Below the pieces are notes generated by a model, which saw only the letters and a list, made by a program, of their open reading frames with translations, ran no database searches and was not told the origin of the DNA. A stretch of 62,102 bases of DNA, counting the filler, from Asterionella formosa (taxonomy: Eukaryota): the NCBI GenBank assembly GCA_002256025.1. It is 17 parts of 17 records of this genome, joined end to end, with 100 filler letters (N's around TTAATTAATTAA, not from the genome) between each part and the next. Parts side by side here need not be neighbours in the genome. Positions count along the whole stretch, not along the records: positions 47,615 to 51,162 come from NKIB01014060.1; positions 51,263 to 54,809 come from NKIB01014061.1; 15 more parts are not named here. The stretch is one strand, 5' to 3'. Shown piece by piece: positions 2,113-51,523 of the stretch. A program made the position numbers and the translations under genes. Numbering within the stretch: the stretch's first letter is position 1; the number at the start of each line of letters is the position of its first letter.

Positions 2113-2336
2113 TGTACCGGTAACATACCGGGTATCTTGATTTATGTTTTGGATACAATTACCGGTATTTGGACCATGCGATCTTAACATAAATTACACC
2201 GGGAAATACTCCTACATATCATATGTACTGTGTATGTGCCGTAGACTATATCCATTTGTGAGTTGATCCCTCCTTGCCATTATTTCACCCTTGCCAGGTT
2301 CCAGCAAACTATTCCACCGGTACTGAAACAAGCAGA

Positions 2337-3539
2337 ATGAGAACGCTACCTCTAGTCTCCATGTCCCTCATCATGTCAGCGACCACTGAATGGACCAGCG
2401 CATTCAGCCTCCATCGGACACACAACGCAATACGACCTTTACTGCGCATTCCAATGCACCTAGTACCCCTGAAAGCATCCTCTTCGAAGGCACTCATCAA
2501 GCCTCACAATGCGTCTGCCAGTGCTGGAGAGGGAGCCATGGATGCTGGAAGCATGGCGTCGTACTCGAGTCGCCGTCCTAATAGCAGCAGTTTGCCCTTT
2601 TGGAAAGTCCTGTGGCAATTCACAAGACCTCACACTCTGATTGGCTCTGCGTTGGCCATTCCGGCATTGCATGCGCTAGCAGCAACATCAATGTCCAGTT
2701 TCTTTTCGGCTGCAAACGCTATTGCCATGATATACGCCATGGTACCGTCGCTATTGATGAACTTGTACATTACAGGTTTGAATCAAATCACCGACGTGGA
2801 AATTGACAAGGTCAATAAACCAAACTTACCCATTGCTGCTGGCGAATTATCGTCAAAAACAGCCACTCTTGTTGTGGTTATTGCCTTAATCGCATCGCTC
2901 TGGATGGGACAGGCTCATACATTACTAGGATCTCAGGGACTTAATGTTGCACTTTGGGGATCGGGCATTTTAGGGACCCTATACAGTTTGGAGCCATTTC
3001 GCTTGAAGAGATTTCCACTCTTGGCGGCGTTTTGCATCGTGGCAGTACGAGGGACACTCATTAATGCTAGTTTCTTCGCACACGCCAAAGCAGCAGCTTA
3101 CGAGTCTACAGGGAGTGTCTTGCACTATCTTGCCAATGACCCAAAGTGTCGTTTAAGTTGCCTCTTTTTTGGTGTCTTTGGCGTTGTCATTGCCTTGATG
3201 AAGGATGTTCCTGATGTTGAAGGGGACGAAATTGCACAAGTCAGGACGTTTTCTGTCAGAGTTGGTCAAGACAGGATCTTTTCGTGGATGAAACGTCTGC
3301 TCACATTGCTATTTATGAGCTATGGTGCTGCATTTTTTCGTGCAGCCTTTACTGCAACATCGACCATTTTGGCATGCTCCAGAACCCTCGTGGCTACATT
3401 GGCTGTCATTGGTGCTATTAGTGTCAACAAAGAAGCGGTTGGAGTGGATCCTAAGGATAGAAGCCAAGTGTATGGATACTATATGCACATGTGGAAGTTG
3501 TTCTATTTATGCTATGCCATACTACCGTTGGCAAGGTAG
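2337..3539 (+). CDS. Plastid-targeted UbiA-family homogentisate prenyltransferase (most like homogentisate phytyltransferase, tocopherol synthesis)
   Basis: FTRPHTLIG, NQITDVEIDKVNKP, IALMKDVPDVEGD and MWKLFY motifs. Signal peptide ending TSAF, resembling the diatom ASAF motif, followed by a transit-like region. Start placed at ATG 2337. Confidence 0.85.
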   Translation: MRTLPLVSMSLIMSATTEWTSAFSLHRTHNAIRPLLRIPMHLVPLKASSSKALIKPHNASASAGEGAMDAGSMASYSSRRPNSSSLPFWKVLWQFTRPHTLIGSALAIPALHALAATSMSSFFSAANAIAMIYAMVPSLLMNLYITGLNQITDVEIDKVNKPNLPIAAGELSSKTATLVVVIALIASLWMGQAHTLLGSQGLNVALWGSGILGTLYSLEPFRLKRFPLLAAFCIVAVRGTLINASFFAHAKAAAYESTGSVLHYLANDPKCRLSCLFFGVFGVVIALMKDVPDVEGDEIAQVRTFSVRVGQDRIFSWMKRLLTLLFMSYGAAFFRAAFTATSTILACSRTLVATLAVIGAISVNKEAVGVDPKDRSQVYGYYMHMWKLFYLCYAILPLAR

Positions 3540-18555: not shown

Positions 18556-20266
18556 TCTTAACGAATTATTTTCACTTGTTGTTGATCAATTGGTTGAACA
18601 GGTGAGAAGAGTACAGTCAACTGGAAGCAGAATATGTAATTATCAATACTGTCGTCGTGATGGTGGGCGCATCGACTGAAACCATTATTGCTATCAATTG
18701 TTTTCTATATTCGGCTCAAGAGATACCCAGGTACCAGGTAGCTAAAGAGGATGGAACCACTATACCGGTAACTATTTTTTTAATATGTATATCGGAAATA
18801 CATACCGGCATGTAAATGTAGTCTGGAATTGGGTGGACGGCGATAGCCTACCGGTATAAAACCAACGCAAGTCTGTCCACGTTCAGTACAATTACCCGGT
18901 TGCTAAACTGTAGACGTACCCCTAAATAGGCAGTTGAAGTTGGTACTACACATGCGTCGGGACCAGGTTCCAGGAATAGGAAGCCCACGTAGCTATTAGT
19001 CCAACCACTCATGAATTATGTACCAGTAGTTCATCACTTTCCATCACACCTGACTGTTTTGCACTTGAGCTTATCAATAATTTTTCGACTTTTCGAATGA
19101 CAATTATTTCAACATAGTAGGCAGTGTTGAAATGCACCCAAGGCAAAAAATATAATATTGCTTTTGGGATGAGAGTCACAAGGGAATTTCTAGGGAAGCC
19201 TCTTCCAGACCCTTGGTTGTCTACCATATCCACAATGCCACAATGGAGCAAGGCGAAGCAAAGCTCCATTGCTGCAATCCTTGCTCCTCACAAGTCTGAT
19301 GCTATCCACCATTAAAAGCTAGCTATGCAGTAAAGTACCAGCTGGCATGCTCAGTACTTTTTCAGGAAATTTTCCCGCCTTTCTCACAAGATTAGGTATC
19401 CTCCATCACCTCTCCTCCGCTACATCAAGGTAGGTGTCACCATTCACATTTGTTGGGGATCTCTACTACATTTATCGCAAAGTGGCGTTATGCATTCTAT
19501 GATTCTATCCCTGTATTTTACATTTAAGGCGCCATAAAAATGAAGTTATTTAATATCATATTTGTAGGATCAGTGTATCACACACTACTAAGTGGCACAG
19601 GTTTTTCAGCATCTGATACTTTTGCTATAATTTGTATGATCACATGATCATACTTAAAATGGTAATAGGATCACACTCAGCATACCACTGGTTTCTGTTA
19701 TTTGTCAGAAACGATTCTAATGCATGAAATAAGCATTGTAATTATTGCAACATCTTCTAGTTTGAATTAGGGCCAGTGATTTTATGATAAAATTCATCTG
19801 CTATTTACAATTTTATCACAAAATGAACATACAATATTTATAAATTGCTCAGAAACTTTTCTTATCAATATCATCAGCAAACCTTAGTATTAGGGGCTGA
19901 GACCAACAACAAGACGAGAAACGCAACATGTAAGCATTATGGTGATCGTCAATTCGCTTATGTGAAACTCGGTCTACTTGGTCATGCGCTTATAGGAGAA
20001 TATTTTCAAGGAACCTTGCCAATAGTTTATGAAATACAACCAGTATGATATGCTAGATAAAGCAAACCGGTATGAATAACACAACGAAGCAAAATTACCG
20101 CAACTTGCAGGTACCGAATCAGCTTAATGCATTTATATTATGGATAAGGACGGACGTGATGTGGTCATACCAAATATCCATGTGAAGCAAATCGAAGGAG
20201 TCCGGACTGAGAAATTGAGATACCGACAATACAACTATTAAGTGCTAGCTACCACCGTTGCCAGGT

Positions 20267-20496
20267 TCCTGGTGAGCGTTGTTAGACTTCGTGCTAACAT
20301 AATCAGGTCCCGTTAGGGGCCTCACGCAAGTGAGGCATTTGATGGGGTCCCACACACCTCCACAGTCCAACGCCCCGATGGATAGGGCAGACCGCGTACT
20401 GGTCAAGACTGGGGCTGCCCACAGGTTTTTAGTGAGTGAAAGTCTCACACTAACTCGCCCAGGTGGAGGGGCGGGGTGCCTTGCTGGACACCAGGA
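20267..20496 (+). ncRNA. Structured RNA-like dispersed repeat, homologous to 50640-50878
   Basis: Shared blocks with compensatory changes, GNRA loops and a closing helix tcctggtg/caccagga. Confidence 0.55.
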
Positions 20497-22536: not shown

Positions 22537-24987
22537 TCACTTTGTTGAAGAAAGGAGGGATGGGACATCCTGAATGTCTTCCAAATATATATCCAAGACG
22601 CTTTCATCCGCCTCGTCGCTCACATCAAGCTTCGAGTCAGGAGGAATATCTTCATCGTCGTCGTCCATTGCAGGAGGACCCTCTTCACGGACAACACCAT
22701 CTTCCAAGTCATCAGAATCAGACAATTCTTTTCCAGCAAGATACTCTGTCTCGCCTTTCCTTGCGACGACTGGTGGGCCCTCGTTGTAGGCGTGTTCCCA
22801 TGCTGCAATTGTGTCTGTGCGGAGGTCATTTAACTCAGAATCTGCACCTTGTCTACGAATGTAGATTTCAACAAAGATATCAAATTGACCAGTCTTTGAG
22901 ATAACGGGCTTGCAGACAAGAAAAACGAAAGCAAAACACAATACAATCCCAATCAAGATGCTAATGGGATTGGGCCACACATCGTAACCGACCGGCAACG
23001 TTCCAATCAAAACAGAGATGATAATAATATACACAGCATAAGGAGTTTGCGTGACCACGTGCTGAAAAAGGGAGCAATCTGAAGCCAATGCTGACAATAC
23101 CGTTGTATCGGAAATTGGCGAGATGTGATCACCAGCAACTGATCCACTCAAGACACCAGCAGTGGTTGAGTAAAAAATAAGCGCATCACCATTAGACGCA
23201 ATCCATGTGGGGACTAACAGAAGGGGGAATACCACACTCATTGTTCCCCAAGAAGTCCCAGTTGCCAAGGCCATGAAAAATGAAATGATAAACGAAAGGG
23301 ATGGCAAAAACTGGTATGGAAGACCAGAGTCGACAATCCAAGAGGAGAAAAGTCTGTCTGTTCCGACAGCTGTCATGATGGATCCACTTGCCCAAGCCAA
23401 GGTTAAAACTATCAAAGCAGGGAAGATGCGTGCCATACCGATCAAGAAGGAATGCACACCTTCATACACAGTCATGAGCGGAATAGCTGGCTCCTCATGG
23501 TCCTCATAATAGGCGCTGCCCCGAAAGAAACTCTGGAGGTAGTCCCAGACGACACTTGGATAAGGGAGGACAAGCTCTCCATCCTTTTTGAACTGAATCA
23601 TGTAGAAAAGGTACGCGATCAAGGCAGCGCCCATAGTTCCCCAAAGCAGAGATGAGTACGAGTCAGCCTGTTGAAGCTTTTGGATGAAAGATAGTTGGCC
23701 AGTTCCATCATCACCAGATTGAACCAAAATCCATAGGATGAGGAAAACAAGGATACTAATGGGAAAGAGCATGTTCCACCATTTTTGAGGAGTTCCTTCG
23801 TGGGGTGCGTTATGGTCTGAACCAATTGATCCACCTGGTCCACGCCCGTCGCCCCCGTCTGTCCGTTTGTATACTTGAGTTCTGCGCTCGGCAATCAACA
23901 ATGGTCCAAAGTCACGCTGCAGCACGATGGTAGCTGCCAGCAGAAAGAGCATGAAGATTGGATAGTAACGATACTTGATAGACTGAAGGAATACACCCAA
24001 ACCGGAGTCGCCAATTGAAAGGTCCGTTGTACCCTCAAGAAGGACGATACGGTCTATTTCAGTTTGAATGAGACCAACCTCAAAACCTACCCATGAAGAG
24101 ACAGGAGTAATCGATGCAATGGGGGCGGCCGTCGCATCGCAAATAAATGCAAGCTTTTCACGAGACGTGTAGACAAGGTCGAGGAGGGGTGACATGGATT
24201 GACCAACAAGCAAAGCACTGGCGTAATCGTCGAAGAAGATCATCAGTCCACAGCAGAAAGCAGCAAACTGACCAGTTCTAGGACTCTTGGCAAATCTTGA
24301 GACTTCCTTGGTAAAACCATGCATCCCTCCGCTTTTCTCCATCATGGCGACTGTACCGGAGAGGAAGAGAGTGAAGAGATAGACATAACCGTGTTCGATC
24401 GAGGACACTGCTTCGAGAATGTAGACGCTAAGCGATTCTTTGAAGCCACCTATAACAGATCCCGCCACCATGCATGCTCCGACACCGACGGAACAACCAA
24501 GTGACAACTCAACCTGATGGGTATACAATGCAAGGAGAAGAACAACAAGAAGTGGAATCAACGATGCAGCGGCTGCAAACGCTTGGTAGTGGTTTTCCGT
24601 TTCGATAGGATCCTCGTCGACAGACAGTACGACGTTAATGGTGTGAGTTCCACTAGTGCTGACCGATACGTTTCCTACCTCCACAGATGTGGGAAGTTCA
24701 CGGCCAACACCAGCAAGGTCGAAGGATCCTTCGGCTTGAAGTATCCCGTCCACGTATGTCTTATAAAGAATGCTGTCTGTACTGTTGGCAATCGTATCTT
24801 TTTCACCCCATTGGATTCCAATGACGCTCACTGTAACAAACTCGTTCTTGAAGAGGGTAAGAAGCCCCCGGATTCCAGACTTGACGTCAACCAGAAACAA
24901 GCCCTCCGTGCTGGTTATATTGTAATCGAACGCGACGGAAAACTGCACGCCGACCAAGAACAGGATAGCGCTCAGAGCCTTGATCAT
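22537..24987 (-). CDS. NhaC-family Na+/H+ antiporter-like membrane protein (816 aa) with signal peptide
   Basis: IFFDDYAS, SREKLAFICDATAAP, ATGTSWGT and GDHISPISDTTVLS motifs. Many TM segments and an acidic tail. Confidence 0.88.
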   Translation of the reverse strand: MIKALSAILFLVGVQFSVAFDYNITSTEGLFLVDVKSGIRGLLTLFKNEFVTVSVIGIQWGEKDTIANSTDSILYKTYVDGILQAEGSFDLAGVGRELPTSVEVGNVSVSTSGTHTINVVLSVDEDPIETENHYQAFAAAASLIPLLVVLLLALYTHQVELSLGCSVGVGACMVAGSVIGGFKESLSVYILEAVSSIEHGYVYLFTLFLSGTVAMMEKSGGMHGFTKEVSRFAKSPRTGQFAAFCCGLMIFFDDYASALLVGQSMSPLLDLVYTSREKLAFICDATAAPIASITPVSSWVGFEVGLIQTEIDRIVLLEGTTDLSIGDSGLGVFLQSIKYRYYPIFMLFLLAATIVLQRDFGPLLIAERRTQVYKRTDGGDGRGPGGSIGSDHNAPHEGTPQKWWNMLFPISILVFLILWILVQSGDDGTGQLSFIQKLQQADSYSSLLWGTMGAALIAYLFYMIQFKKDGELVLPYPSVVWDYLQSFFRGSAYYEDHEEPAIPLMTVYEGVHSFLIGMARIFPALIVLTLAWASGSIMTAVGTDRLFSSWIVDSGLPYQFLPSLSFIISFFMALATGTSWGTMSVVFPLLLVPTWIASNGDALIFYSTTAGVLSGSVAGDHISPISDTTVLSALASDCSLFQHVVTQTPYAVYIIIISVLIGTLPVGYDVWPNPISILIGIVLCFAFVFLVCKPVISKTGQFDIFVEIYIRRQGADSELNDLRTDTIAAWEHAYNEGPPVVARKGETEYLAGKELSDSDDLEDGVVREEGPPAMDDDDEDIPPDSKLDVSDEADESVLDIYLEDIQDVPSLLSSTK

Positions 24988-25675
24988 CTCAACTGCCTTT
25001 CTAACGCTAGCTTGTATAATGCCTTTTCTATCTACACCTTTGTAAACGATTTCGGTGTCGAGAAAAGAAATGTGATCATGAGGGGGTGAATCAGCTTGAA
25101 ATTTATTTCGGCATCACCATGGTACAGTACCGGGGTAATAGTAGGTCTAGGTGTATAGATATGTACGGGTATATCGGAGTGGAGTACGTATTATTATTCA
25201 ATTTGCCTATGTACGGTACGGTATCTCCTGTACTCAATAAATTTAGGGGCAATTTAAAGAAGAATATCTTGCGTTGTGGAATCTATACACAGTACTGTTT
25301 AACTAATTCATACTCCTGTGAATAATACGACTATATAGCCCTAGGCTCTCTCCTACATACATAAGTACATTTGAATTACCGGAATGCTCTACCGGTAGTC
25401 GTGCTACTGCCTGTACATATGAAGTCTGAATAATGGCCAGCCAGCAACTGGCATGCTCCTTGCTGCCTTTTCTGTGACCATCATTGGACGATCCTCCGTT
25501 CAAACATGCCGCAGAACAACGAAGGTGTCAAAGTTCCCGAATATGGAGGGAACACCAGTATGTGCTCGTACCCTCNNNNNNNNNNNNNNNNNNNNNNNNN
25601 NNNNNNNNNNNNNNNNNNNTTAATTAATTAANNNNNNNNNNNNNNNNNNNNNNNNNNNNNNNNNNNNNNNNNNNN

Positions 25676-45094: not shown

Positions 45095-45260
45095 CCTTCA
45101 GCAGATGTTGTATACACGTAGCAACAGTCTCAACCTAAGTAGACTGCTGGTAGTCCATTCGAGATTACAGTATAACATTGAAACGTTTGTTTGATCTTTG
45201 TCTCTTCACGAGATCTTTACAATTAGATCCTTGTCGTTGTTTTCCGGTGGTTCTTCTGTC

Positions 45261-47514
45261 ATGCATAACTATGGAGGCTTGATGCGCTTCAACCGCACCG
45301 GTCGTCTCTACGGTCGAAGCAGAGAAGTGAGTATCCTATTGGATGCTTTTACACGTGTCAGGATTGGTGCAACTGAAGCGGTCCTTGTTTCAGGCGAAGC
45401 AGGCGCTGGAAAGAGCAATGTCGCCGAATCCCTTCGAGGCCCTGTGACTTCGATCGAATTTTCTGGTTACTTCATCGCTGGAAAGTATGACCAGCTTAGG
45501 CTAAACGAACCCTTTAGTGCGATTGTGAACGCGTTCAATGACTTAGCTGAAATCATAAGTCTCACAGAAGGTTCTCATTCACGAAGAAGCAGCATTAAGG
45601 AAGCTCTTGGGGATGAGGCTTGTTTGCTCTGCAAATTGATCCCGAATATTTCAAATTTGCTTGGACAAAAGAAAAATCCAGAGGAGGAAGTGGGGGGTAA
45701 CATGATGGACATTGTTTCCAAATTGACTCTGGCCTTTCGAAGATTTGTAGGCGTTGTTGCCACAAAAGAGAGCCCATTGTGTATATTCCTTGACGACATT
45801 CAATGGGCAGATCAAGCATCCATACAAGTGATACGAGGCCTTATTACGGACATTAGGAGCAAACATGTTCTTTTAGTATTGGCCTATCGAGATAATGATC
45901 TGAACGCTGCAAAAGTTGACGAGTTCTTTCAATGTTCCGAGAATGAAAAAATGGTGCATTTGACCAAGATATCAATTGGTAATCTTGATGTCGAGTCAAT
46001 TCATGACTTGATTTGCGATCAATTGAAAATGTCAACTTCTGATGAATCTATGAAATTGAGCGAATGCACATGGAAGAAGACTTCAGGAAATCCTTTCTTT
46101 GTACTTGAATTTCTGGATGAGTTACTTGGCAGGGGATTCATCGTTCGAACCGATTCATCGTGGTTGATGGATTTAGAGAAAATTCAAACCGAGACCAATG
46201 TGTCTGTCAATGTTGTCAATACGATCTCTAAACAGATGAAACGGCTACATCCCCATATAAGAGCTGTTTTAACATATGCCGCACATCTTGGCTTTCAGTT
46301 TCGACGCGATGTACTGGAAGCCATTGTGATCTCTGAACACGTATCGTCCAGTTTGAAGTTGATTCCATTGCACATAGAAATTGCAGAGATCAAGGGCCAA
46401 TTTACACAAGATCAATACCATGACAGAGTTTCCAGAATCCTGGATGCTGCAACTGCCGAAGGTATTATCGAAAAGTGTGATGATTCTGGAATCAAAATGA
46501 AGTTTGTGCATGACTACCCTCAGACTGTTCTTTATAATTCCATTCCCGAAGGAAGGGAACGGGCAATGATACAATTGACAATTGGTATTTATATAAGAGA
46601 GATGCTGCTACCAAAATGTAACGATTTTCTATTTCCTGTTGTGCACCATCTAAATCATGCATCGCCATACTTGGTTGAGGAAGGTGATCGTGTTGGCTTA
46701 TCACGACTCAACCTTGATGCAGCAAAGTTAGCAATAAGCGAGAAATCTGCGTTTTTGAGTGCCTCCGAGTATTTGCGATATGGTATCGATCTTCTTGATG
46801 CAGACACCATGTGGAGCAAGCATTACGAACTTTGTCTGAGACTGTTTAGCCTTTCTGCAGAGATCGGTTATCGTATTGGAGACTTTGCATATAGCGATAA
46901 AATGGCAAAAAGCATCATGGTAAATGCACGAACCATCGAAGATAAAGCATCTGCCTACTATTCGGAGATCGATGCACTGAATGCGCAAGCCATGCACACG
47001 CAGTCAATTGACAAATGTCTTTCAATTCTACAGGAATTGGGAGTGAAAGTGACAAGACATCCAACTACATTTGCCCTTCTTTGCTCATTTGCAAAGACGA
47101 AGAAATTGCTTCATAAGAAATCAGATGATTTCATTCTTTCATTGCCCCTTCTTGAAGAAAATGCGCAAGCTATTATGATCATGACCATTCTCATCAAAAT
47201 TTGCTCTGCAACCTATTTCCTTGGAGAAATGAACCTGGGGACATTTGCTATTTTACGCGTCGTTCAATTGTCCCTAAAGTATGGTATTTCATCAATGTCA
47301 CTTCCTGCATTTGCTGCTTATGGTAGATTGGAATCAACGCTGGGAAATTCAGAAAGTGCATATCGGTTTGGCATGCTTGCACTCAAACTACTGGACAAAC
47401 AAAGTTGTCAGAAGAAGCACATCTGTATAACTATGGTGTATTCATGGACTTTCAATTTACATGGGAAAAGATCATTAACCGAAGTTGCCGACGCATTCAA
47501 ACAAGCCCAAGTTG
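45261..47514 (+). CDS. AAA/STAND-type predicted ATPase (COG3899-like) with helical-repeat C-terminus, 3'-truncated
   Basis: LYGR, Walker A GEAGAGKS, Walker B IFLDDIQWAD, TSGNPFF and FVHD motifs. The true start is uncertain. Confidence 0.85.
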
Positions 47515-47614
47515 NNNNNNNNNNNNNNNNNNNNNNNNNNNNNNNNNNNNNNNNNNNNTTAATTAATTAANNNNNNNNNNNNNNNNNNNNNNNNNNNNNN
47601 NNNNNNNNNNNNNN

Positions 47615-49076
47615 AGGCCCGGCTGATTCTAGGAGGTCACATGATCGATGCCTCAGGACACGATACATACACGACCAACATGAAAGGAATCAGTGCCAGA
47701 ATCCTCATGCTTATTGCAAGTGCAAACGAACTCAGGGTATTAACAGGGGATATAGGGAATGCGTATTTGTATGCCAGCACAAATGAAAAAAAATTCTGCA
47801 GGCTAGGAGAAGAGTTCAGCATAGCAGGGCATGGGGCAACTGGAAGGATTGCAGTGCTTGAAAAGGCACTGTATGGCACCAAGAGCGCTGCAAACCGATG
47901 GCATGCACATCTAGCAGACACCCTACGATGTATGGGTTTTGCAACAAGCAGATATGATGCAGAAATTTGGTACCAAGCACGTAGTGATGGCTCTGGCTAT
48001 GATTACATCGGGACAAATACTGATGACCTGATGATAGTGGCAAAGAACCCGGAAGGGTACTTTGAGGTGCTACAGGAGAAGTATACGATAAAGAAGATTG
48101 GCCCATCTACATTTCACCTGGGATGTGATTACGTAAGGGGACCAGATGGTAAATGGAGCATAGGAACAGAAACCTACGTCAAGGAAACCCTGGAGAGAGT
48201 GAAAACCATGCTAGGCCGGAAGGACCTTGGCAAGGATGATGCACATATCTCACCAACATTCCATCCAGAGCTAGACAATTCACAACTACTAGATGTCGAC
48301 CAACACAGGTTGTACCAACAACTAGTTGGAATAGCCCAGTGGTTGATAACATGTGGTAGGCTTGATTTTTGCTATGCCATTTCGTCTTTAAGTCGATTCA
48401 GCTCTGCACCGCGGATAAAACATCTAAATGCACTGGAGCGAGTATTCAAGTATATCAACAAGAATAGAGCACTGGCATTAAGATAAATCCGGAAAATTAT
48501 GTCTTACCAAAGCATGACATCATGTACGAGAGCGCAGATTGGACTGAGCAGTACCCGGGAGCAATCGAAGAAATGGATGAGAAGTTCCCTACTCCACTAG
48601 GGAAGGAACTTAGCACAACCTTATACTTTGATTCAGACCACGCCCATGATCAGAAAACGAGAAGCTCTATTACTGGGATGATTGCCTTCATAGGATCTAC
48701 CCCAGTAACATGGGCATCGAAGCGTCAAGGGGCAATAGCAACTAGCACTTACACTGCAGAGCTATGTGCGGGTAGAACGGCTGCTGAGGAAGCCATCAGC
48801 ATTAGATACATGCTGAGATCTTTAGGGGTGCCCGTGACGACACGAACGCTATTATTGGGAGACAACCTAGGCTCGCTCCAAAGTACCTCGAATCCTGGGT
48901 CTGAATGCCATAAGAAACATAGTATGGTTAATTACCACTGTGTGCGAGAGTGTTGTGCATCTGGAATCATCCAACTCGCAAAGGTAGACACTAAGTTGAA
49001 TCTTAGCGATGGCTTTACCAAAGCTATCGAGAAGTCTATCTACCTTGATCATAGAAGATGCCATTTTGCAGCGTGA
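47615..49076 (+). mobile_element. Ty1/Copia RT-RNase H, frameshifted near 48486
   Basis: GDIGNAYL, LEKALYG, TNTDDL, YFDSDHA, WASKRQGAIATSTYTAE and NLSDGFTK motifs. Confidence 0.92.
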
Positions 49077-49147
49077 CATATATGATAACGAGGCAATGTG
49101 GTAGATTCACCATTACTTTAGAGGCACTACGTTCATAGCTTGAGGGG

Positions 49148-49544
49148 TGGTCAGGTACACATAGTACATTGTCATGTAGCTCCTACGGGCAAGCGATGGA
49201 AGTAGTGATTCCAACTACTGTAATATATTCACTGCCTGATCAAGGACGGGGTCACACAAAACCTCGTGGGGAGTAATCCCCCTTTGTGTGATGGACTAGG
49301 ACTACCTCCAGGTTTAAGTCTATCGGGTACGTAGCAATATGGAGGGACTGCATCTATACGTACGTTGTGATGTGGGTAGCAGGAGTCGTACGGCGAATGC
49401 GATGCTGCAGGAGCATAATAAACCTGCACAGATCCATGCACCAACCGGGAGTAACGCACCCGGAGGGTACGGAAAGCTATTTTCCAGCAGCAATGGACCA
49501 CCTGACCCTCTTGGAAGAGGCCTAAAGTAGTCTAGATCCTGACA
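49148..49544 (+). repeat. Probable 3' LTR of the Copia element
   Basis: Follows the purine tract gagggg. Termini tggtcagg...cctgaca are near-inverted. No second LTR is present to confirm. Confidence 0.55.
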
Positions 49545-50068
49545 CAAAGATGGAACAGAGCTGTGTACAGTCGGGTTTTTGGGAAAGAACATTGCTACTT
49601 TGGAGAAAACAAAATTTCAATATTAAGACAAGTTTGCTCCAATCATTGAGCTGTATGATGAAAGTGACAATCAAACAAAGAAGATTAGGAGCAACCACAA
49701 CCTTGGCTGGAGTGGCTTCATTTCGACTTTTTGATGACATCCAAAATCATGAGTAATGGATTGTTCTAAATGGTGCTTCTTTGAAAAAGGTTCAAAAATC
49801 TTGATTGAACAAGGATAGATTCAATACAAATTAACTAGTAGCTGAACATTATAAGACTTTAAACTGGTCATTGATTTAATTTCTATTTGTCAACAAAATA
49901 AATAATATATTTTCCATTTGCAAGTCAGACATGTAGTTTGAAAACGATATATTAAACAAATAAAAGATTTAATCACTAAATATTATCCAAATATACTACA
50001 ACTAAAGTAGACCAGCTTTGTATCCAATACTGGCTCAGGTCTTTGTGATCAACGACACAGTTACCTTG

Positions 50069-50172
50069 GCCCCTCACGGGATGGAAACTTGGCCGTAGTT
50101 GAGGGGCCCTCTCCCTTGATGTGTTGGCGGAATCTGCGTATTTCGTCCACACAAGGTGACCAATGTCCATCC
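50069..50172 (+). ncRNA. Candidate HDV-like self-cleaving ribozyme (variant)
   Basis: P1, P2, P3, L3, P1.1, P4 and J4/2 (CCAA) occur in the canonical order at the 5' junction of the insertion. Confidence 0.55.
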
Positions 50173-50983
50173 ACGAGCTGATAGGAGGCCGCTTTTCGCT
50201 TATAGGCGATTTAACGCTTATGTCCTGGGCCGCCCTCTTCTAAATAAAAGAGGGTACATTATCCAAGGCTTCTCTGGTCATTTCCAAAGAAGATATATTA
50301 GGGTGAAGCGTACATGGGGACCCAAAAATCTTGTCCCACGGTTACTAGGTAGGGGCTCTGGGACTCCCAGAGTCCCTGTCCCACCATCCTCTTGTCACTA
50401 GAGAGGAAAATTGTGAGGGTAGAAAAGAATGCTAAGTCCCTGGGGTGTCGGGACATGATGCCTTAATCTTGGGTAAGAGGTTGCATTTATGGGGTCCCTC
50501 ACTGTGCAGGGTGGTTAGACCAAAAAACCACCAGCCACAAGAGCAAATGGAACTGTTCCGCGGAGGGAGCAGCCCATTTGTTGGGTAGTTAGGTATGGGA
50601 CAGACGCAACTATGAATGACAGCCTAGCAGGCATAAGCCCCTGTTGGGCGTCAGTTCAGTGCTGTAAGACTTTGTGCTTACAGAAATGGGTCCCAGATAG
50701 GGGGGCTCCGCTCTGCTCCTCTCCTGGGGTCCCACACACCTCCACGGGCCAACGCACCAATGTGTAGGGCAGACCGAGTACTGGTCAAGACTGGGGAGTC
50801 ACAAGGTTTTTTAGTGAGTGCAAGTCTCACACTGCTTCGCCACCGTGGTGGGCGGCGGGGCGCCTCACCGGGCACAGGTTTGACAAACCTGTGGATGAAG
50901 TAGGAATTCTTTCTCAACACGCTATGACGTGAAGAGACCGGATAGGTTTTTTCCCTTGTCCCTGTGAACAGCCAAAAAAAAAA
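50073..50983 (+). mobile_element. Non-autonomous poly(A) retroposon (about 0.9 kb) with a 15-bp TSD
   Basis: cagttaccttggccc at 50058-50072 and 50986-51000, and A10 at 50974-50983. Removing the insert restores the pogo frame. Confidence 0.85.
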
Positions 50984-51523
50984 CCCAGTTACCTTGGCCC
51001 ATGGAGCCTCCACCCATTGCGCAACATTATCCCTTATAACTTTTTTATTTTCTATGTTTTGAATCATAAAATTCTCCCATGCAGCCTGCACATAGCCTTT
51101 GAATGGCTTGTTGACGCCCACATCCAGTACTTGAGCGAAGCTGGGATGTGTAGCCAGGGGTTNNNNNNNNNNNNNNNNNNNNNNNNNNNNNNNNNNNNNN
51201 NNNNNNTTAATTAATTAANNNNNNNNNNNNNNNNNNNNNNNNNNNNNNNNNNNNNNNNNNNNCTTCATACATAAATATACAGATATGTTGATCAGACCGA
51301 TCGAAATTCTGACGTGGTCACCTCGACAGAATTCTTCTTCCCGATTTTCCTCGGAACTAAATATTGCATGGTTTATAACACTTTATAATTTTAGTTTGTG
51401 TTTTCTCCTTCTTTGATCGTCGCTTCAAACTCTTTGTATTCCTCGTGAGCCTCTTCAATCGTTAGCGTGTTTGTTGAGATCGGAACAAATTGCTGATAAA
51501 TTTTCAAATGATGTGATACCCAA

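Follow-up and report, generated by a model that had tools for sequence, protein, structure and literature searches.

A non-coding insertion of ~0.9 kb was identified in a 62,102-nt stretch of DNA of the diatom Asterionella formosa (GenBank assembly GCA_002256025.1), which is called the window here. The window strings ~17 unplaced contigs together into a pseudo-molecule; each is ~3.55 kb long, with slowly falling lengths, and contigs adjacent in it are not neighbors in the genome. The insertion sits on the contig at positions 47615 to 51162 (3548 nt). The inserted element, designated B, lies on the plus strand at 50070 to 50985 and consists of 906 nt plus a terminal A10; in the following it is numbered from 50070 (position 1), with a length of 914 nt. 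B was inserted in the manner of target-primed reverse transcription (TPRT) and is non-coding, and it probably represents a recent copy of a non-autonomous, poly(A)-tailed retroposon without long terminal repeats (non-LTR) that borrowed its tail from a long interspersed nuclear element (LINE). We infer that B is mobilized in trans by this LINE. Self-cleavage by the first 106 nt of B is judged separately below.

Insertion anatomy and the 5′ end of B

A sequence-only reading had placed the insert at 50058 to 51000, with a target-site duplication of 15 bp. The direct repeat CAGTTACCTTGGCCC was indeed found to be exact over 15 nt at 50058-50072 (left) and 50986-51000 (right), and it extends to 18 nt with one mismatch (50055-50072 and 50983-51000), as had been stated. 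When the 3548-nt contig was shuffled 500 times with its dinucleotides preserved, only one shuffle contained a direct repeat of at least 15 nt within 2 kb. The A10 tract was recovered where it had been described, at 50976-50985, with CC between it and the right repeat. The left limit, however, had to be shifted. The repeated unit begins at 50070 and not at 50073, and the CCC at 50070-50072 belongs equally to the left repeat and to the 5′ end of the element, so that the unambiguous duplication comprises 12 nt plus 3 nt of microhomology. The conclusion that a long duplication together with a poly(A) tail marks TPRT holds true in view of this anatomy and of the fixed 5′ end described next.

Further copies of B were found outside the window. 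Metagenome contigs were scanned with a 19-nt motif taken from a 141-nt piece shared with the LINE, which yielded 14 loci; nine were real relatives, and five (L004, L006, L009, L012, and L014) were chance bacterial matches and were dropped. Two of the loci, L010 and L011, are parts of one metagenome contig of 6641 nt that holds a second full copy of B, in which positions 1 to 911 are 96.9% identical and are followed by a poly(A) of ~70 nt. A partial copy (95.5%) is present in L001. In a search of sequencing runs, the insert was found at full word share in 16 runs, of which 14 are DNA runs from lakes or freshwater and two belong to a set of six metatranscriptome runs; the other four of this set had word shares of 0.69 to 0.87, and the holders span 12 studies. 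Viral contigs gave no match with either the tail motif or a head motif, and prokaryote genome contigs searched with the head motif gave a single 19-nt chance match in a Chloroflexi metagenome-assembled genome (L015).

Logan contigs of four runs from four studies (DNA runs X1 and X6, RNA runs X15 and X17) were mapped on the whole contig. In all four runs, one contig matched B from 50070 onward with no difference, reaching 50983 in X1 and X6, 50980 in X15, and 50902 in X17. In both DNA runs the contig (926 nt) has its left end precisely at 50070, and past 50983 it goes on for 12 or more A residues. Such ends are expected from a de Bruijn graph when a repeat has a single boundary in common but differing flanks. 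In the RNA runs, the two contigs extend 29 to 30 nt upstream of 50070, into two different places of the LINE 5′ region (matched by eye), and upstream of the second full copy there is a 29-nt piece of the LINE open reading frame (ORF) end together with a short duplication of B's own first bases. Thus, four different upstream contexts, those of the window, of the second copy, and of the two RNA contigs, meet the same first base, which shows that the B unit starts at 50070. The sequence-only reading had called for copies with a shared 5′ end and a poly(A) tail, and both were found in this way; the target-site duplication was verified for the window copy only. No contig of the four runs bridged an empty site, and parts of the AT-rich spacer at 49638-49994 had little or no cover; no conclusion is drawn from this.

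The two metatranscriptome contigs, which come from two studies, contain B with no difference, which answers the call for RNA coverage in part, but RNA libraries may include DNA. Contig depths for B and for the LINE-type module were 35 versus 229 and 27.5 versus 59.5 in the DNA runs and 810 versus 217 and 130 versus 10.7 in the RNA runs, ratios that give a hint of strong transcription of B, with the limit that contig depths cannot rank genes. The LINE 5′ sequence that abuts 50070 in RNA might reflect copies of B nested in LINEs, source copies driven by a LINE promoter, or switches of the reverse transcriptase (RT) from the 5′ end of B RNA onto LINE RNA. Splicing was rejected as the source of the two junctions, as the LINE sequence after both of them lacks an initial GT.

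LINE and B were repeatedly seen nested in each other. On the minus strand of L001 and L013, a 52-nt fragment of the B head (positions 49-100) lies between a LINE poly(A) and the 5′ end of the next LINE, and in L001 a LINE 5′ untranslated region (UTR) is joined to position 681 of B.

LINE-derived tail and foreign body

The 3′ part of B is homologous to a LINE in two blocks. The first, at 50638-50878 (plus strand, B positions 569-809), aligns to the last ~37 codons of the LINE and to the first part of its 3′UTR, a conserved module, with 75% identity over 243 nt (L007, 4860-5099). The second, at 50932-50985 (plus strand), is the LINE-type 3′ terminus ...CCGGATAGGTTTT...GAACAGCC plus the A10 tail, of which B positions 863-914 align to the LINE terminus with 83% identity over 52 nt. 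B and LINE thus share the end ...GAACAGCC-poly(A), and down to the 8 bases that precede the poly(A) the terminus of B is that of the LINE. Between 50725 and 50767, B retains the C-terminal relic GVPHTSTGQRTNV, which ends in the relic stop codon TAG at 50765-50767. Upstream of this peptide the nucleotides are still ~75% alike to those of the LINE, whereas the encoded peptide is unrelated, which indicates that the relic is not under coding constraint. For the shared 3′ module, a consensus fold of 41 pairs was obtained from four sequences, with compensatory changes in three of the pairs and four broken cells; the case for a conserved fold is suggestive but thin.

A partner-type LINE was recovered from the metagenome, where the majority of the remaining real loci contain a LINE whose single open frame encodes 1500 amino acids. 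Its protein has an N-terminal region without a Pfam match, an endonuclease domain of the apurinic/apyrimidinic (APE) type (Exo_endo_phos, residues 250-456), an RT domain (RVT_1, residues 809-1043), and a C-terminal CX2CX9HX4C knuckle with a weak zf-RVT match (E value of 0.14). Among solved structures, the RT is closest to human L1 ORF2p (E value of 8.6e-25) and more distant from R2 (3.7e-14). In the protein collection, 231 relatives were found at E values of 0.001 or below, and the only named ones among the best 120 of these are from the brown algae Ectocarpus and Pylaiella (36 to 38% identity). The LINE family (L007, 488-4987; P0002 to P0012) has a single ORF of ~1475 to 1500 amino acids with the C-terminal peptide ...RSRWG...TGQxxxG, directly followed by the stop codon, and this stop codon falls within the conserved, structured 3′ module. 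The ending TGQxxxG plus stop was present in all nine listed proteins that reach it (P0002 to P0005 and P0008 to P0012), even at ~45% overall identity; it may be a functional motif of the protein, or the ORF end may overlap a signal in the RNA.

In agreement with the proposed mobilization by a LINE, the terminus of B matches a LINE with APE and RT domains. The expectation of an autonomous LINE sharing both ends was not borne out: the recovered LINE shares the tail and lacks the head of B. In the window, the insert recurs only as a 141-nt piece at 20343-20481 (82%, blastn), which lies within a 5′-truncated relic of the partner-type LINE at 20248-20494 (plus strand) on another contig of the same assembly. 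This relic comprises the ORF end and the 3′UTR module without the terminal tail and was found by tblastn with residues 1456-1500 of P0001 (82%).

Several irregular LINE arrangements were also noted. LINE copies stand head to tail in several metagenome contigs (L007, 1-300; L001 and L013, minus strand, just past the LINE poly(A)), and some of these tail-to-head joins may be assembly chimeras formed through poly(A). The LINE 5′ region contains tandem units of ~65 nt (CCACCGGAAAyGTGG...CTAGGTGG) and an A-rich tract. In L003 and L008, an unrelated, AT-rich tandem repeat (~180 nt) breaks the LINE 3′UTR after ...CATTCCTGAACAAGTGATG, and two short pieces of the 3′ module are missing from L008, which suggests either a variant form or a further insertion.

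The homology of the tail raises the question of whether the insert could be the 3′ end of another autonomous LINE subfamily with a very long 3′UTR, present as a 5′-truncated copy. The last ~345 nt of B are LINE-derived (about 75 to 84% identity), the ~45 nt upstream of the second copy include the 29-nt piece, with 93% identity to the ORF end of the LINE, and further LINE relatives, seen as protein only, have 77% and 54% protein identity. In addition, truncated LINE insertions typically show microhomology at their 5′ junction, here CCC/GGCCC. Truncation would scatter the 5′ ends, however, whereas the contigs of X1 and X6 end exactly at 50070 and one unbroken contig without differences covers B in each of the four runs. 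None of the four differing upstream contexts runs an ORF into the element. Moreover, the ORF-end relic and its stop codon already lie 220 nt from the tail of B, so that the upstream 568 nt would have to be coding, and they match no LINE protein; a complete HDV-like fold also stands at the first base (HDV, hepatitis delta virus; see below). We therefore regard a truncated LINE as very improbable, and the claim that the insert is not simply the 3′UTR of a randomly 5′-truncated LINE stands, with its fixed 5′ end and with LINE homology confined to the last third.

The LINE homology of B stops at position 569. For positions 1 to 568, the nucleotide comparison with the final ~1 kb of the LINE stayed below significance (best E value of 0.14), no Pfam or Rfam family was found, and whole-locus blastn revealed no further match between head and LINE. 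The body proper, at 50176-50637 (plus strand), has no relative detectable by Pfam, tblastn, or blastn in LINEs or proteins. Judged by the recovered LINE, B is not a plain internally deleted LINE derivative of the kind of the short internally deleted elements (SIDEs) or of NARTc, as both its head and its ~460-nt body are foreign to that LINE.

This lack of relatives could be explained if a cellular transcript with an old LINE fragment at its 3′ end, either a non-coding RNA or an mRNA, had been retrocopied, which would make B a family of processed pseudogenes. The body is without a transposable-element or protein relative, as such an origin would predict, and the depths of 810 and 130 in the RNA runs against 35 and 27.5 in the DNA runs can be read in the same sense, within the limit given above for contig depths. 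On the other hand, several copies with 95 to 100% identity share both ends in different contexts, the terminus is the LINE's own as far as the 8 bases adjoining the poly(A), and no intron- or ORF-bearing parent was seen. As an account separate from a tail-borrowing retroposon a retrocopy is very unlikely, and in practice the two merge, since a capture of this kind is how non-autonomous families originate.

The insert had been described as free of credible ORFs and of tRNA A/B boxes, and both statements were confirmed: none of seven tested insert ORFs had a Pfam match at E values up to 1, and ARAGORN found no tRNA gene in the insert. No Rfam family was found at E values up to 1 in the 1.4 kb searched. 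A tblastn search of 121 LINE proteins against the insert yielded nothing significant; among the matches listed, the recurring site was insert positions 654-689, where the last 10 to 12 residues of the closer LINE proteins aligned with a best E value of 0.009, and chance-level matches reach similar values. A canonical short interspersed element (SINE) of ~80 to 500 nt, with an RNA polymerase III (Pol III) head derived from tRNA, 5S, or 7SL RNA, was ruled out by the ARAGORN result, the lack of relevant Rfam matches, the length of 914 nt, and internal T6 runs, which would end Pol III transcripts.

The description of B as densely structured, with hairpins along its length, could be upheld only in part. 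The hairpins named in the sequence-only reading are real and readable in the sequence, and two of them were also recovered as inverted repeats (I7 and I14), but their density is no greater than in controls and is therefore no evidence in itself. The minimum free energy (MFE) of the whole element had z-scores of -4.3 and -5.3 in two runs against shuffles, and sequences of the same length gave -6.3 (LINE ORF), -5.2 (LINE 3′ end), -3.6 (reverse complement of the insert), and -2.7 (copia). As the controls fold as well as B, global stability was rejected as a sign of a structured RNA.

Five observations weigh against the interpretation of B as a free-standing, tail-borrowing retroposon. Intact LINEs were seen only in metagenome contigs, and the window carries just the truncated relic at 82%. 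The tail of B is just 75 to 84% identical to the recovered LINE, and its true partner may belong to another subfamily. Three of the four known upstream contexts are LINE-derived, so that B could usually be part of LINE/B hybrids. A fixed 5′ end is also expected from a transcription start site, and DNA in RNA libraries would weaken the hint of transcription.

A predicted HDV-like ribozyme head

The first 106 nt of B (50070-50175, plus strand) can be folded by hand into a ribozyme of the HDV type, with the predicted cleavage immediately 5′ of 50070. In this drawing the double pseudoknot of P1, P1.1, P2, P3, and P4 is complete and begins exactly at 50070. P1 comprises 7 bp between 50070-50076 and 50100-50106 (B positions 1-7, CCCCUCA, with 31-37, UGAGGGG), P2 is formed by 50077-50085 and 50166-50175 (8-16 with 97-106, one bulge), and P3 by 50087-50089 and 50097-50099 (18-20 with 28-30). 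L3 spans 50090-50096 (21-27, UGGCCGU) and contributes to P1.1, in which 50091-50092 would pair with 50107-50108 (G22 and G23 with C39 and C38). P4 covers 50112-50159 (43-90) and is followed by J4/2 at 50160-50165 (C91-C-A-A-U-G), with a candidate catalytic C at 50160 that precedes C-A-A. L3 contains U50090 and G50095; the U (position 1) and the G (position 6) of L3 and the C-N-A-A after P4 stand at the sites of U20, G25, and C75-G-A-A of HDV. Up to nt 43, the helices follow each other and are numbered almost as in the genomic HDV ribozyme. The excerpts of PMC3774820 state what functions the G/U pair of L3 and the catalytic C have.

The specificity of this fold was assessed with a strict descriptor that comprised a P1 of 7 bp, a P3 of 3 bp, an L3 of 7 to 8 nt with U1 and G6, two Watson-Crick pairs in P1.1, a P4 followed by C-N-A-A (with the C up to 5 nt after P4), and a P2 of at least 5 bp. 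On both strands of the window the descriptor matched only at 50070, in 126 kb of loci it matched only the second copy of B, and there was no match elsewhere in about 250 kb of real sequence. One match occurred in 5846 shuffles of the element (5.35 Mb). The match starts at the boundary that was mapped independently by the run contigs. A match of a loose HDV descriptor in the LINE 3′ region (L007, 4913) was taken as chance, as the strict version has no match there.

The head deviates from HDV in two features, a C-G pair instead of G·U at +1 and a P1.1 with the G residues in L3. Both a C at +1 and an altered P1.1 have a precedent in active trypanosomatid retroposon ribozymes: according to the excerpts of PMC4035085, those of L1Tc, NARTc, and SIDER have C1 as their first base, the GC pairs of their P1 are oriented otherwise than in HDV and R2, their P1.1 pairs likewise depart from HDV and R2 in number and bases, and the classic search rules for HDV-like ribozymes are too restrictive. 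The direction of the P1.1 swap is our own comparison and is not taken from that paper. The L1Tc ribozyme was likewise found by manual folding, as stated in the excerpts of PMC3185411.

A number of results speak against a ribozyme. The HDV-type models of Rfam gave no match at E values up to 1 on 1.4 kb, nor up to 10 on 151 nt. RNAfold recovered P2 and P4 in the head with an MFE z-score of -1.1, pseudoknots being beyond its scope. The strict descriptor is post hoc and was built partly on general HDV features, so that its p-value is optimistic and the odds are weaker than 2e-7 per base; in its first form it demanded that the C follow an unbulged P4 without a gap and failed to recognize the head, and the one relaxation made afterwards adds to this caveat. 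The loose descriptor had 20 other matches in the window without the P4 rule and 11 with it, and in shuffles it matched at 6e-5 to 1.7e-4 per nt; a looser version matches about once in 10 to 16 kb. No head was found by the strict descriptor in the nine LINE-bearing loci. Finally, only two head sequences are available, and these are too alike for covariation: of the four positions at which they differ, two fall in the P4 loop, and the other two (n77 and n78) preserve G-C/G-U pairs in P4. Taking both sides together, this computational fold makes self-cleavage by the head slightly probable in our judgment. The designation of the element as ribozyme-headed is thus supported by a complete HDV-like fold at its first base, a purely computational result, but not by an Rfam ribozyme match.

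The competing explanation for the discrete 5′ end is a transcription start at 50070, directed by an internal or upstream promoter, with the HDV-like drawing being a coincidence and B a tail-sharing parasite without a ribozyme. The missing Rfam match, the modest z-score of the head, the post hoc descriptor, and the frequency of its loose versions would all fit this explanation. According to the excerpts of PMC3185411, the cleavage site of L1Tc coincides with the transcription start of an internal promoter, which makes the two mechanisms hard to separate. A coincidence would nevertheless have to produce the strict match, so rare in shuffled and in real sequence, precisely at a mapped boundary. 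It would also have to place the U and G of L3 and the CCAAUG of J4/2 at the canonical positions. In addition, the RNA contigs that continue past 50070 into LINE 5′ sequence imply that read-through precursors, or DNA, are present. A promoter without a ribozyme is a serious possibility, although the evidence inclines us away from it.

The life cycle of B as a tail-borrowing retroposon is probably as follows. B RNA has one discrete 5′ end at 50070, most likely produced by the HDV-like ribozyme in the first 106 nt, which would cut the element from longer transcripts (read-through or LINE-promoted) just 5′ of its first base, as in R2, L1Tc/NARTc, and SIDER. The 3′ third of B is an old piece of a LINE, with the ORF end (now non-coding), the 3′UTR, and the exact terminus, and the LINE RT presumably recognizes the shared 3′ module and terminus in trans, as in "stringent" tail sharing. 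The APE endonuclease of the LINE would nick the pogo remnant in which B resides (see below), B RNA would be copied by TPRT up to its own 5′ end, and joining of the cDNA end at the CCC microhomology would leave the duplication of 12 to 15 nt. The proposal of a non-autonomous, ribozyme-headed, structured-RNA family mobilized by a LINE is largely right: it holds for a non-coding TPRT family with a LINE tail, but its structure is not distinctive and its ribozyme is predicted.

A more far-reaching version, which we consider rather unlikely, is that B is a three-part LINE parasite composed of a working HDV-like head with C at +1, a type so far linked to L1Tc/ingi elements of trypanosomatids, a captured non-coding body, and a mimic of the LINE 3′ end, that it is transcribed from the LINE promoter and frees itself at 50070, and that it uses the LINE RT in trans. 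Its source copies would then directly follow LINE 5′ regions, an arrangement seen in the two RNA contigs whose LINE 5′ sequence abuts 50070. Such an element would combine promoter theft, self-processing, and tail mimicry in a diatom lineage that is abundant in lakes. A delta-like circular RNA agent was rejected as an explanation, as the DNA copies carry a poly(A) and a target-site duplication.

Genomic setting and comparison with known systems

The contig that bears B contains, from left to right, a copia-type RT (plus strand; RVT_2, Pfam E value of 1.1e-14), an AT-rich spacer, and a pogo-type transposase remnant (minus strand) into which B is inserted. The target is the upstream half of the C-terminal remnant of a DDE_1 transposase at 50984-51160, which leaves the contig at its end (51162); the DDE_1 match has an E value of 0.0046 and 17 bits and is under the Pfam cut-off of 22. 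When 50073-51000 was deleted in silico, the minus strand read ...APWAKVT joined to VSLITKT and a stop codon, the continued frame lying at 50035-50072. Excision thus rejoined the pogo frame as had been claimed, but for eight codons only before the stop at 50035-50037, which is expected of a decayed pogo copy. The copia-type element at 47615-49543 is covered by RNA-run contigs at ~98% identity, with a word depth of up to ~1579 in X17, and is probably an active, transcribed LTR element.

The G+C content of the insert is 52%, versus 43% for the window. The contigs of the window are joined by 100-nt linkers of the form N44-TTAATTAATTAA-N44 (e.g., 51163-51262 and 47515-47614), and a single gap of 430 N is present at 1683-2112. 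Ordinary host genes were found on other contigs, at 45195-47514 (plus strand), 22540-25113 (minus strand), and 2262-3536 (plus strand), with products that include an AAA_16 ATPase, a Na+/H+ antiporter, a UbiA prenyltransferase, MatE transporters, and glycosyltransferases. For the antiporter (858 amino acids), the named relatives among the best 97 matches listed are all diatoms (Seminavis, Cylindrotheca, Nitzschia, Fistulifera, Cyclotella, and others) with ~43 to 54% identity, which bears out a diatom as the host.

In a literature search on non-autonomous non-LTR elements of diatoms, the only report found was that of a "putative SINE" of Phaeodactylum tricornutum with 13 copies and a total of 1,454 bp, about 110 bp each, for which the excerpts of PMC5859163 mention no LINE partner, tail, or ribozyme. 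A search for diatoms together with self-cleaving ribozymes and retrotransposons retrieved nothing related. The suggestion that B might be undescribed in diatoms is in agreement with these searches; elements that appear to be of its kind are known from insects and trypanosomes, and none was found described for diatoms. Diatom non-LTR elements are barely described, and a LINE with its non-autonomous partner, present in lake metagenomes and in RNA-run contigs from two studies, provides a concrete system for diatom retrotransposition. Should the head cleave, ribozyme-processed retroposons would extend from animals and trypanosomatids to stramenopiles, and the natural HDV-like variants would gain one that combines an inverted P1.1 with C at +1, a type that current covariance models miss. 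B may also serve as a marker, being identical over the covered parts in four runs from four studies and present at full word share in 16 runs.

In "stringent" tail-sharing pairs of SINEs and LINEs, such as UnaSINE1 and UnaL2 of the eel, the 3′ tail of the SINE is homologous to the 3′ end of the LINE and contains a conserved stem-loop. B resembles these pairs in its tail homology and stem-loop module and differs from them in its length of 914 nt, the lack of a Pol III head, and a predicted ribozyme head. In the case of the R2 SIDEs, as described in the excerpts of PMC3414825, a 5′ ribozyme sets the RNA's 5′ end within a co-transcript and the LINE 3′ end is bound by the RT for TPRT, and B would work alike with its predicted ribozyme. 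R2, however, uses a restriction-like endonuclease and is specific for 28S ribosomal DNA (rDNA), whereas B has an APE-type partner, a long duplication, a poly(A), and a non-rDNA target; R2 SIDEs are internally deleted forms of R2, whereas simple internal deletion of the recovered LINE does not yield B.

The trypanosomatid elements NARTc and SIDER are, like B, non-coding, poly(A)-tailed, and dependent on an APE-type LINE (L1Tc/ingi). Their HDV-like ribozyme lies in the first ~77 to 100 nt and cleaves 5′ of a C at +1 (PMC4035085 and PMC3185411, excerpts), where B has a predicted one, and the orientation of the P1 GC pairs and the P1.1 bases are unlike HDV in both (PMC4035085, excerpts). The head of NARTc and SIDER (Pr77) is common to the autonomous LINE, whereas the LINE recovered here lacks such a head. 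B further differs in its diatom host, its greater length (914 nt), and its unrelated body of ~460 nt, and the likeness is one of description, no sequence similarity being claimed. The analogy to R2 SIDEs and trypanosomatid SIDERs drawn in the sequence-only reading therefore applies to the working principle, but not to the origin by plain internal deletion from a LINE with the same head. By analogy, B appears closest in working principle to NARTc/SIDER with L1Tc/ingi and to the R2 SIDEs with R2.

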